UHGV virus genome: UHGV-0268470 | DNA from: a virus | DNA: 19,712 bases | Strand: one strand, 5' to 3' | Shown here: piece by piece, positions 13,995-15,748 of the stretch | How the letters are laid out: every line of letters starts with the position of its first letter | Position numbering within the stretch: position 1 is the first letter of the stretch | Position numbers and translations under genes: made by a program | The notes under the pieces: model-generated | The model's input: only the letters and a program-made list of their open reading frames with translations | What the model was told of the DNA's origin: nothing | The model's database searches: none

Positions 13995-14215
13995 ATTCCA
14001 CGGACAAAAACAGAGAAAGGAAACGACAGAGGCCAAAAAGCCCGTTTTCAGCACCTGTCGTTTCCTTTCTTTTCAGGGAGTGTTTTAAATAAAAACATTA
14101 AGTTACGGCGAAGAAGAACGGAAACGCCTTAAACCGGAAAATTTTCATAAATAGCGAAAACCCGCGAGGTCGCCGCCCCGTAACCTGTTGGATCGACGGA
14201 AAGGACCCGAAAACG
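13995..14215. promoter_or_regulatory. cos site: cosB (R3/R2/I1/R1) - cosN - cosQ; the 12-nt cohesive end is 14167..14178
   Basis: 14134..14178 is the reverse complement of the recalled lambda left end GGGCGGCGACCTCGCGGGTTTTCGCTATTTATGAAAATTTTCCGG. Inverted R sites gaaacgacag (~14021) and ctgtcgtttc (~14056), an A/T-rich IHF-like stretch (~14085..14105) and an R1-like site (~14108..14125) lie between cosN and Nu1. Confidence 0.8.
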
Positions 14216-14326
14216 AGAATAATTATCACTTACAGCAAGAATCGAATCTGATCTATTATGGTGCTTGCTATTATGTGCCGGCACAAGTGCGTCGTTTACC
14301 GTCATTTCACACAGAGGCATCATCAA

Positions 14327-14578
14327 ATGAAAATCAGAAATATTCTCGCTATCTCCCTTGCGACATCATCCTTCAGTTGCCTGGCATTTAAATCCTCGCC
14401 CAATGTGCTACCAGGACCAACGAATCAACTAACTGCGGTAGAAAGTAAAATTATCGGACATTTTTATGCCCCACACAGTACATTACCCGGAACAACCATC
14501 ACAGGGACATGTGACGCCTCCCCCGTCCCGGGATGCACCTGTCCGTTTTGTACTATGCTGCGTAGCCAAAACCGATAA
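14327..14578 (+). CDS. Hypothetical secreted Cys-rich small protein (83-aa precursor)
   Basis: ATG at 14327 with AGAGG 8-9 nt upstream. N-terminus MKIRNILAISLATSSFSCLA is a typical Sec signal peptide. Mature part ends with 4 Cys (GTCDASPVPGCTCPFCT). I recognise no homolog. Confidence 0.5.
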   Translation: MKIRNILAISLATSSFSCLAFKSSPNVLPGPTNQLTAVESKIIGHFYAPHSTLPGTTITGTCDASPVPGCTCPFCTMLRSQNR

Positions 14579-14639
14579 CATCCGCATTTACCTGGTATTC
14601 CATGATGAGTTCACGCAGCGACTGATAGAGGAAGGAAAG

Positions 14640-14819
14640 ATGGTTAGTAAAAGCAAGGCGCATTGCCGCCGCATGCTGCAGGCATTGCAACAGACGAGAG
14701 CAGGTATTTTTGACCAGTTGGAAAACTGCCAGCATACTTTGCCCGAGTATATCGCCATCTCATCGGAAACCAGTGCAACTCTTATTCATCGGGTTCCACC
14801 AGAGAAAAAGAAGAAATGA
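14640..14819 (+). CDS. Hypothetical small protein (59 aa)
   Basis: ATG at 14640 preceded by AGGAAGGA; MVSKSKAHCRRMLQALQQTRAGIFDQLENCQH..., followed by a hairpin. I recognise no homolog. Confidence 0.4.
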   Translation: MVSKSKAHCRRMLQALQQTRAGIFDQLENCQHTLPEYIAISSETSATLIHRVPPEKKKK

Positions 14820-14825
14820 ACAGTG

Positions 14826-14850
14826 AGGCGTTGTGTGGCATACAACGCCT
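14826..14850. terminator. Hairpin between convergent genes (9-bp stem aggcgttgt/acaacgcct, 7-nt loop)
   Basis: Perfect inverted repeat followed on the plus strand by tcttcc; lies between the 3' ends of the 59-aa ORF (+) and the lipoprotein gene (-). Confidence 0.4.
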
Positions 14851-14941
14851 TCTTCCATCATTCCTCGTCAGCCATGACAAAAATATAACCGCTGGCTCTT
14901 TCATTTTTCTCCTGCTTCCAGCCCCTCTCTACCTGGAAGCA

Positions 14942-15268
14942 TCAAGGACGTGACGGCGTAAAGATAAATTGTCTCTTCACTCCCTGACAGGGGCGATTCT
15001 TTTCAAATCGCCATTTCGCCATGGCCTTCACCACTTCATCACGAAACAAATTATGAGGCTCTGAGCGGAGAAAAACGATCCGTGTCACAGTCCCATCAGC
15101 ACCAATATCGAACTTAACCTCAACCAGCCCCTTGATATAATTTGCTGCAGCATATTCCGGATATCGTGGATACACCGTCACTAATTGCCGGGGCTCATCA
15201 GCTTTTTGCTGCGAGCATCCCACTGCCAGGACAGATAACAGAAAAAGTAGTAAAAGGCGTCTTTTCAT
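14942..15268 (-). CDS. Lipoprotein consisting of a stand-alone TonB C-terminal-like domain (108-aa precursor)
   Basis: ATG at 15268 gives MKRRLLLLFLLSVLAVGC|SQQ, a lipoprotein signal with lipobox LAVGC and Ser at +2. The mature part YPRYPEYAAANYIKGLVEVKFDIGADGTVTRIVFLRSEPHNLFRDEVVKAMAKWRFEKNRP aligns by eye to the recalled E. coli TonB C-terminal domain ([58 protein letters not shown]). The ORF-track start at 15322 is an over-extension. Confidence 0.7.
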   Translation of the reverse strand: MKRRLLLLFLLSVLAVGCSQQKADEPRQLVTVYPRYPEYAAANYIKGLVEVKFDIGADGTVTRIVFLRSEPHNLFRDEVVKAMAKWRFEKNRPCQGVKRQFIFTPSRP

Positions 15269-15748
15269 TTTTATTCCTACGGGTCTTATTCTGACAATAT
15301 ATCCTGTGTTCCAGACTGCCACATCACCACATCCTGTGCCATTATCTGACTCACATTACATACATCGCATCGGGATACAGTAGTAGCACTTTCTGTAATA
15401 CAGCTTCCTGTTTCTTCCACCATCGCACCGGGATAAACCCGCGAATCATTAACGCGGTAAAAACCCGGTGTGCATCGTTTTTAATTATTCCCGCACACTC
15501 ACGCAGAAGGAATTCCCCGTCGGGCTACGGTCATGGTTAATGCGGGAATACGGCGACGATACAGCGCAGCTAAAAGGGTAATGGACGGATAGACCGGTTT
15601 ATTTCATTCCACAGGATTCTGAGTGTCCCCAACTTCCTCCAATAGTCTGAGCCCACCTGTGTAGTTTTAATTTTCATCAATCCATTTAACTATCGTTTAA
15701 TTGTTGTCACATAGGATTCTGCCGTTTTTAACAATGCAGGATAATAAG

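Follow-up and report, generated by a model that had tools for sequence, protein, structure and literature searches.

The 19,712-nucleotide virus genome UHGV-0268470, which was analysed here at its full length as the window, is a lambda-like prophage in reverse orientation with its late genes on the minus strand, and the stretch between its cohesive-end site (cos) and the bor lipoprotein gene was found to hold three small genes, encoding a TonB-like lipoprotein, a Cys-rich mini-protein and a 59-amino acid (aa) protein. The three genes are separate, independently assorting cassettes of low G+C content and not a single inserted island, and the segment that holds them is the right-end accessory region of phage-21-type lambdoid prophages, located between the cos flank and the linker that includes the bor promoter. 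Our combined reading, to which we give a probability of roughly 45%, is that the region provides a decoy for TonB boxes together with a periplasmic Cys-rich metal-handling protein. The DNA is known and widespread and the label 'TonB family protein' already exists, so that the segment is not new as a sequence feature. What is new here is the coding evidence for the Cys-rich and 59-aa open reading frames (ORFs), the rejection of an annotated antisense ORF, the cassette structure with its breakpoints, the association of the Cys-rich family with Zur boxes and a testable decoy hypothesis.

Three small genes converging on a hairpin

The Cys-rich gene (14327-14578, plus strand, 83 aa) has a GAGG motif 9 nt 5' of its ATG and the 59-aa gene (14640-14819, plus strand) has GAGGAAGGAAAG immediately 5' of its ATG, while the TonB-like gene (14942-15268, minus strand, 108 aa) has AGGA 7 nt upstream. 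Both plus-strand genes and the one on the minus strand run towards a common hairpin at 14826-14850 with a 12-bp stem containing one mismatch, which starts 7 nt past the stop codon of the 59-aa gene and lies 92 nt past that of the TonB-like gene. A first-pass annotation of the window had described three small genes with their own ribosome-binding sites, two on the plus and one on the minus strand with a hairpin between them, and each of these elements was recovered. The U-rich tail of the hairpin is better on the minus strand (CACUGUUCAUUUCUUCUUUUUCU) and the 3' region on that strand folds with z = -2.4; the hairpin is likely to act as a bidirectional terminator, judging by these features. A second hairpin was found at 14913-14941.

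Comparative tests of the candidate genes

Given that 57 ORFs of at least 25 aa overlap positions 13000-17000, support for coding had to come from comparative tests and not from ORF size. Substitutions were therefore counted per frame in 36 distinct variants of 14134-15568 obtained from IMG/VR loci. The TonB-like gene showed 9 synonymous and 4 non-synonymous substitutions, corresponding to a ratio of non-synonymous to synonymous polymorphism (pN/pS) of 0.14, and no indels. For the Cys-rich gene 4 synonymous and 5 non-synonymous substitutions were counted, none of them at codon position 2, and neither stops nor indels were present in the 36 variants. The 59-aa ORF had 2 synonymous and 7 non-synonymous substitutions (pN/pS 0.93) and carried a 1-nt insertion after 14654 in two independent contigs (L075/L076), a lineage that corresponds to the protein P0059 (48 aa, 486 contigs). 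The comparative tests, including those between genera described below, support all three ORFs as coding, the 59-aa gene more weakly than the other two.

The 59-aa protein is basic (pI 9.7) and has no signal peptide. By tblastn it was matched over its full length to a 57-aa Salmonella prophage ORF (L113 3001-3174, and also in 21 IMG/VR contigs) at 41% identity, and the two proteins have the same start, MV[ST]KSKxHCRR, and are reciprocal best matches. Their alignment scored about 16 standard deviations above shuffles, and the identity at the three codon positions (0.52/0.62/0.36) was of coding type. The Salmonella ORF occupies the same slot: a spanin gene lies on one side of it and the small terminase gene on the other, and it runs against the direction of the late genes. 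This homologue overturned the view that the 59-aa ORF is non-coding, to which the population data and a k-mer search had pointed, and the ORF is probably a small gene with two known clades that in E. coli evolves under relaxed constraint or is disappearing from part of the population. Its product may be a small nucleic-acid-binding regulator. In Salmonella serovar India (NZ_CP022016, L113 2534-3174) two small ORFs come before the 57-aa gene, one for a 55-aa membrane-anchored mini-protein that contains Cys (annotated 'lytic enzyme') and one of 61 aa. The trio lies between spanin and small terminase, opposite to the late genes, and its arrangement parallels that in the window, where the gene for a small exported Cys protein comes before the 59-aa gene.

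The databases place a different gene at this position, a 60-aa ORF on the minus strand at 14553-14735, and if they were right the two plus-strand ORFs would be spurious. This antisense ORF is called both by the Prokaryotic Genome Annotation Pipeline (PGAP; WP_000881610.1) and in the curated phage 21 record (CPT_21_75), and it has its own PHROG family, phrog_3744. Against these annotations, 0 synonymous and 6 non-synonymous substitutions were counted in its frame, a premature stop was present in 10 variants, the L075/L076 insertion breaks this frame as well, and the ORF overlaps the 3' end of the well-supported Cys-rich gene. Moreover, no conserved antisense ORF was found at the locus of the Salmonella 57-aa gene, where it is the plus frame that is conserved with a coding-type pattern. 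We therefore judged that the antisense ORF is no gene and consider the database annotation almost certainly wrong; the choice of the plus strand for the 59-aa ORF, which had already been made in the first-pass annotation, is the better supported one. Two further ORFs of the phage 21 record, 14782-14904 and 15286-15423 (both minus strand), were rejected because of stop-gain variants and for lack of conservation in loci whose TonB-like allele is 72% identical. The Cys-rich gene is annotated neither by PGAP/RefSeq nor in the phage 21 record, and the results amount to a correction of RefSeq and of the reference phage 21 record, in which one gene was missed and one ORF was called on the wrong strand.

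The TonB-like lipoprotein

The TonB-like protein matched the models for TonB's C-terminal domain, PF03544 (TonB_C; E = 7e-13, 49.2 bits with a cut-off of 24.6) and TIGR01352 (47.4 bits, cut-off 27.1). It aligned without gaps to residues 151-230 of E. coli TonB with 32/80 residues identical (40%), and this is the stretch of TonB that is present in the TonB-FhuA and TonB-BtuB complexes (2grx, 2gsk). The YP motif and residues F180, G186, F202, W213 and F230 are kept, and Y215 is replaced by F. Residues 1-18 constitute a lipoprotein signal, MKRR-LLLLFLLSVL-AVG-C18 (also MKRRLLLLFLLSVLAVG-C18), with a charged n-region, a hydrophobic core, the lipobox L-A-V-G-C18 and Ser at position +2; residues 19-33 are a short linker and the rest is the TonB C-terminal domain. 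Both alleles of the gene keep G17-C18 invariant, and at +2 they have S, A or T but in no case Asp; sorting to the outer membrane is therefore expected for this predicted lipoprotein.

The protein has neither a transmembrane anchor for ExbB/ExbD nor a proline-rich spacer, and the NCBIfam TonB equivalogs match it only at their C-terminal ~80 positions and far below their cut-offs. As judged from its sequence, it is a TonB_C-domain protein and not a TonB energy transducer, and lacking the membrane anchor and the spacer it would not be able to transmit energy. Relatives were found essentially only in E. coli prophages. When genome contigs were scanned with the protein and its alignment, the only match was a 418-bp contig (L112, NZ_SJEX01000172.1) of a Modestobacter excelsi assembly, which encodes residues 1-67 at 100% identity and is probably a contamination. 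The defence models of PADLOC had no match to any of the three proteins.

It is established that the TonB box binds strand 3 in TonB's C-terminal domain by beta-augmentation (PMC11658791), and TonB-dependent iron import is inhibited when the TonB domain is overproduced in the periplasm (Howard et al. 2001, cited in PMC9841981). A complete TonB C-terminal domain that is exported and tethered but has no means of coupling to ExbBD would be best explained as a competitor for TonB boxes. In the mechanism that we propose, the TonB-domain protein would be exported and fixed by a lipid anchor at the inner face of the outer membrane, where it would pair through a beta-strand with the TonB boxes of TonB-dependent transporters, and the resulting competition with host TonB would lower the TonB-dependent entry of phages, colicins and microcins and thereby give exclusion or protection. 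If this is true, a prophage could use the decoy as a simple and general means of closing TonB-dependent entry routes to competing phages, to colicins and to siderophore-drug conjugates.

Several known systems resemble this arrangement. The C-terminal domain of E. coli TonB (PDB 1u07, 2gsk, 2grx) is the same domain, with the YP motif and the aromatic core conserved. The inhibitory periplasmic TonB fragments, which inhibit transport by FhuA and FecA according to the citation of Howard et al. 2001 in PMC9841981, are like the TonB-like protein in being periplasmic and in having no energy-coupling N-terminus. Unlike TonB and its fragments, the TonB-like protein is phage-encoded and has a lipoprotein signal and a 15-residue linker, and inhibition by it would be expected by analogy. 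Cor (of phi80, N15 and HK022) and Llp (of T5) are phage outer-membrane lipoproteins that block FhuA for superinfection exclusion. The TonB-like protein is expected to be similar to them as a small phage lipoprotein at the periplasmic face of the outer membrane with a TonB-dependent transporter as its target; no sequence relationship to Cor or Llp is indicated, TonB_C being its only family match, and its proposed target differs in being the generic TonB box and not one receptor.

An alternative is that the TonB-domain lipoprotein has a late lytic function and is expressed by read-through of the Q-antiterminated late operon, in which case it would not be an exclusion factor expressed in the lysogen; it might then help to disrupt the envelope, form a tether to peptidoglycan or outer membrane, or stop TonB-dependent uptake in the dying cell. 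The gene is always located between the lysis and packaging modules, is co-oriented with S-R-Rz and Nu1-A in both alleles and has no detected sigma-70 promoter upstream, all of which speaks for this alternative, and the protein matches PHROG 1267 (phrog_1267) end to end, a family labelled 'Rz-like spanin' (category lysis). We rejected the spanin label, for which there is no domain support since TonB_C is the sole domain, and it was apparently inherited as a mis-annotation from GenBank records. The region is already adjoined by a complete Rz/Rz1 pair, the hairpin directly downstream suggests a separate unit, and the gene is intact and under purifying selection across many prophages. Given these observations we regard a late lytic role as unlikely and prefer the interpretation as a TonB-box decoy.

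A family of exported Cys-rich mini-proteins

Full-length homologues of the Cys-rich protein (~83 aa, 55-77% identity) were found in E. coli, Citrobacter, Klebsiella and Salmonella salamae and indica by the search of 5.8 billion proteins, and a profile search of 1.84 billion representatives extended the family to 31 clusters, nearly all of 79-85 aa, out to Enterobacter, Serratia and Pantoea. All 31 clusters are named 'hypothetical protein', and identities within the family range from 27 to 93%. In an alignment of 34 sequences (down to 27% identity) A20, F21, C62, C70, C72 and C75 were invariant, the four cysteines forming a C-terminal cluster C62-x7-C70-x-C72-x2-C75 (CX7CXCX2C; GTCxAxPVxGCxCPFCTMLRS). 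The signal peptide, MKIRN-ILAISLATSSFS-CLA|F, has small residues at -3/-1 and reads ALA|FQ or AMA|FQ in distant members, and it is predicted that the product is exported by the Sec/SPase I route and cleaved at A20|F21 to leave a mature part of ~63 aa.

The pairwise ratio of non-synonymous to synonymous substitution rates (dN/dS) of the Cys-rich gene against the Klebsiella and Salmonella genes was 0.10-0.20, and the DNA homology to these loci is confined to 14319-14580, that is to the ribosome-binding site and the ORF. Between the window and an E. coli prophage with a 71%-identical allele (L093) pN was 0.17 and pS 0.80. These results mark the Cys-rich ORF as a real gene of an uncharacterised Enterobacterales family. 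No match to the protein was found in Pfam, NCBIfam, PHROG, PADLOC or PDB, enterotoxin families included, and a profile search against PDB sequences found nothing. The first-pass annotation had called for homology and profile searches of the three proteins, and these gave a TonB_C assignment for one and uncharacterised homologues for the other two. Two long, asparagine-rich, eukaryote-like proteins (P0080 and P0082) contain 4-5 repeats of P[IL]PGCNCPKCTxLR; this repeat is nearly identical to the C-terminal motif of the bacterial family, PVPGCxCPFCTMLRS, which hints at a common CxCxxC micro-domain.

The Cys-rich gene is a free-standing cassette that was found in varied contexts. It adjoins cos in E. 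coli prophages, lies in C. koseri next to the phage 21 attachment gene icd, and is located 130 nt from a cos remnant on a Klebsiella plasmid (L084), near cobW and a Fur-family gene. In S. salamae it is found among virulence genes, those for a SPATE autotransporter, a PPC-domain protein, a Bor-like protein, an omptin and a NEL effector, and in a Citrobacter it is located between a fecIR-receptor operon and narLX. It directly follows cobW in a metagenomic enterobacterial lineage, and in Enterobacter and Klebsiella it faces an ABC operon of the znuA type.

Zur boxes upstream of chromosomal relatives

The loci were scanned for the core of the Zur box, TGTTATnnnATAACA, at 10/12 or more positions, a consensus for gamma-proteobacterial Zur sites. 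In six chromosomal contexts a match lies at a distance of 36-107 nt upstream of the Cys-rich gene. In a seventh, that of S. salamae, the preceding gene is the co-directional PPC gene and a perfect Zur box is located ahead of it, which gives 7/10 contexts with a match. Shuffled loci had ~0.37 matches to the core per 10 kb, and as an internal control the motif was also found ahead of the cobW and znuA-type operons next to the gene. The sites are L092 5002-5021, L097 4965-4979, L101 4894-4908 and 9380-9394, L102 4962-4976, L105 1280-1294, L106 3435, 3562 and 4912, and L088 4454-4468. This association suggests that the family is an undescribed small secreted member of the Enterobacterales zinc-starvation regulon. 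The link to Zur holds for the chromosomal relatives and not for the copy in the window, and the other cos-adjacent copies (the L093 E. coli prophage allele and the L084 Klebsiella plasmid) are likewise without a Zur box. In our proposal the Cys-rich protein would work in the periplasm through its four cysteines, most likely in zinc handling, and the prophage copy would have been uncoupled from Zur. The chromosomal members are like ZinT and the znuABC/cobW-type Zur regulon in their Zur boxes and neighbourhood; compared with ZinT-type zinc proteins, the family has no sequence similarity to characterised zinc proteins, and its candidate ligands are four Cys and not His.

The mini-protein could instead be a disulfide-knotted secreted effector, for example a toxin, a bacteriocin-like or a signalling peptide, that serves in virulence or competition and is not a metal protein. 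Its layout is pre-pro-like, with a signal peptide, a variable linker and a conserved C-terminal Cys cluster, the periplasm is oxidising, and in Salmonella salamae the gene is found among virulence genes. The searches described above gave no Pfam, PDB or PADLOC match, enterotoxin families included, no export or immunity partner is located nearby, and the repeated association with Zur boxes, cobW and znuABC-type operons points to zinc starvation. An effector of this type is in our opinion rather improbable, and a metal-handling role for the Cys-rich protein is preferred.

Another possibility is that only the TonB-like gene is functional and that the two plus-strand ORFs are hitch-hiking or decaying remnants in phage 21-type prophages. 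Decay would account for the substitution pattern of the 59-aa ORF (syn 2 / non 7), for its frameshifted lineage in 486 contigs and its variants with an internal deletion or a 1-nt deletion, for some Cys-rich copies (P0038, P0041) in which an internal double frameshift removes C62, and for the loss of the Zur box from the copy in the window. It does not fit with a Cys-rich ORF that was intact in 36/36 variants with codon position 2 unchanged, with the clear purifying selection between its prophage alleles (pN 0.17, pS 0.80), or with the conservation of the segment at 99% or more in ~1,200 genomes, and we find it distinctly improbable that the plus-strand ORFs are remnants of this kind.

A Fur-type palindrome in the cos flank

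Position 14214-14228 is occupied by a Fur-type 7-1-7 palindrome, CGAGAATAATTATCA, which matches 12/14 positions of TGATAATnATTATCA, adjoins cosQ (window 14202-14208, annotated in the phage 21 record) and lies ~100 nt upstream of the Cys-rich gene. No other site in the window matches at two or fewer mismatches, and 0.04 such matches would be expected by chance. In L093 (~4921-4935) and in HK629 (L104 226-240) and lambda-type phages 14/14 positions agree, the copy in lambda reading TGATAATGATTATCA, and given these perfect matches in the lambda-type loci and in the locus with the 71% Cys-rich allele the palindrome belongs to the common cos flank. It is always located upstream of a gene that reads away from cos, which is the Cys-rich gene here and DUF3950 in lambda-type phages, and a possible function for it would be that of an operator for this outward-facing gene. 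To our knowledge, the palindrome has not been described as a cos element or as a Fur site. In HK629 (L104) an unannotated 64-aa DUF3950 (YlcI/YnfO-type) ORF at 389-583 faces away from cos (Pfam E = 2e-20).

A bolder extension, in which the bor-cos region is a module for metal warfare that unites a TonB-box decoy with a Cys-rich protein derived from the Zur regulon and re-wired behind a Fur-type operator, would be improbable in this complete form. If it were true, the decoy would give receptor-independent exclusion or colicin protection by way of the TonB box, which all TonB-dependent transporters have in common, and the envelope of the lysogen would, together with Bor/Iss, answer the nutritional immunity of the host.

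Points that weigh against the combined reading

The probability of roughly 45% given to the combination of a TonB-box decoy and a periplasmic Cys-rich metal-handling protein takes into account a number of observations that weigh against it. For the TonB-like protein, residues of TonB implicated in contact with transporters differ (Q160->Y, R166->Y and R158->T), a constitutive competitor of TonB would cost the host iron uptake, and the gene has the orientation of the late operon in both alleles. A consensus scan found no sigma-70 promoter serving any of the three genes. By eye, weak extended -10 candidates can be seen at 14266-14274 (TGCTATTAT) and ~25 nt upstream of the TonB-like start (TGTCAGAAT, which reads TGTTAGAAT in the 72% allele). 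The proposal of the first-pass annotation that the genes are lysogenic-conversion cargo, which would require expression from the prophage, did not gain support, given that a convincing sigma-70 promoter was found for none of them and that the TonB-like gene, co-oriented with the late operon, may be a late gene. For the Cys-rich protein, the copy in the window has no Zur box at 10/12 or more positions, the nearest 9-of-12 matches being unrelated, and AlphaFold2 models were unreliable (pLDDT 49 and 56 with alignments of 18 and 34 sequences, respectively). Cysteines in the periplasm are usually disulfide-bonded and not metal-bound. The 59-aa ORF looks unconstrained within E. coli, with the substitution counts and the frameshifted lineage given above, and the k-mer search of 5.8 billion proteins returned only copies at 90% identity or more and frame-broken variants. 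Finally, no literature on any of the three genes was found, and searches for prophage TonB-like proteins gave nothing relevant.

Two RNA-based candidates were also considered. Rfam searches over 13900-16200 gave sub-threshold miRNA noise only, and a placement here of svsR, a small RNA of phage-21-site prophages, was ruled out since svsR maps to cI.

Identity with phage 21, breakpoints and spread

The left limit of the region is the phage genome end at cosN, where the cohesive-end sequence AGGTCGCCGCCC, the reverse complement of GGGCGGCGACCT, was read directly at 14167-14178; the phage 21 record ends at window position 14179. From 14179 to 15800 the window matches the right end of phage 21 (OL657228) at 100% identity and several other sequenced phages at 99.9-100%. 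The content that had gone unrecognised in the first-pass annotation is therefore known DNA, in which the TonB-like gene is already annotated as 'TonB family protein'. The paper on the phage 21 genome states that its morons differ from those of lambda and says no more about them (PMC9119081). Of 5,426 complete E. coli genomes, 1,221 (~22%) contain 80% or more of window 14100-15800, in most cases with an identity of at least 99%, and clinical isolates such as O25b:H4 and JJ1887 are among the 100%-identical matches. The segment is thus present in about one fifth of complete E. coli genomes, beside the serum-resistance gene iss.

With the lambda-type phage HK629 the window has 13990-14234 (93% identity), 15461-15571 (83%) and 15695 onward (94%) in common, and the resulting breakpoints at 14234/14235 and 15460/15461 define the phage-21-specific segment as 14235-15460. 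These boundaries came out of the comparison of the bor-cos segment across lambdoid prophages that had been recommended beforehand, and they agree with the earlier statements that none of the products is a lambda protein and that the content at this position differs from that of lambda-type phages. The G+C content of the phage-21-specific segment is 46.7%, compared with 54.5% for the window.

The three genes were also found apart from each other. Loci with the 72%-identical TonB-like allele have only 14959-15568 in common with the window, the plus-strand genes being replaced there by a DUF3950 ORF, an HNH gene and another terminase. Where the Cys-rich allele is the 71%-identical one, the prophages contain cos, this allele, DUF3950, the linker 15406-15568 and Rz, and neither the TonB-like gene nor bor. 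The Salmonella homologue of the 59-aa gene was found with neither of the other two genes. Because of this independent assortment and of their low G+C content the cassettes look like morons, which is to say that they are present or absent between conserved flanks of related phages and are atypical in composition. The term moron island used at first is accordingly appropriate in so far as a mosaic of low-G+C cassettes lies between common lambdoid flanks, and inappropriate in so far as there are three separate cassettes and no single island.

The right limit of the phage-21-specific segment is a linker common to lambdoid phages (15461-15571), which was found in 432 phage records, including lambda, 434, Stx, Salmonella and Shigella phages. 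It includes the region annotated as the bor promoter in HK629 and carries a perfect 10-bp inverted repeat (15486-15495 / 15541-15550). It acts as a boundary of recombination for bor and the cassettes downstream. An ORF at 15468-15581 (plus strand) was rejected as a gene because it evolves neutrally and lies in this linker, and 14580-14940 was rejected as a DUF3950 remnant because no similarity was found.

In lambda, the cargo between bor and cos (lambdap78/YbcV DUF1398, lambdap79 and a DUF3950 ORF of the YlcI/YnfO type) occupies the same slot between Rz/bor and cos as the genes described here. Bor/iss and this lambda cargo are like the phage-21-type region in their flanks, in low G+C content and in their small envelope-directed products, and in both types the cos-proximal gene faces outward behind the same palindrome. 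The genes themselves differ entirely, with no homology in 14235-15460.

Neighbouring genes and a rearrangement in the portal gene

The bor/iss lipoprotein gene (15749-16042, plus strand; Pfam Lambda_Bor E = 1e-30; PGAP name 'increased serum survival lipoprotein Iss') is a neighbouring, already characterised moron and serves as the right-hand landmark. The late genes, all on the minus strand, are Q (17622-18311), holin (16995-17312), endolysin (16532-17008) and Rz (16074-16535) beyond bor, and Nu1 (13444-13989) and terminase A (11544-13469) on the other side of cos.

In the portal gene, a 461-bp segment (10042-10502) is inverted relative to the otherwise 100%-identical intact prophage of E. coli 4/1-1, and the portal ORF (region 9964-10572) is broken into three pieces. 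The inversion is bounded by perfect inverted duplications at 9964-10043 / 10423-10502 (80 nt) and at 10042-10115 / 10499-10572 (74 nt). This arrangement was present in 0/5,426 complete E. coli genomes. Either the prophage has been made defective by a private rearrangement of the foldback type, or the arrangement is an artefact of the assembly.

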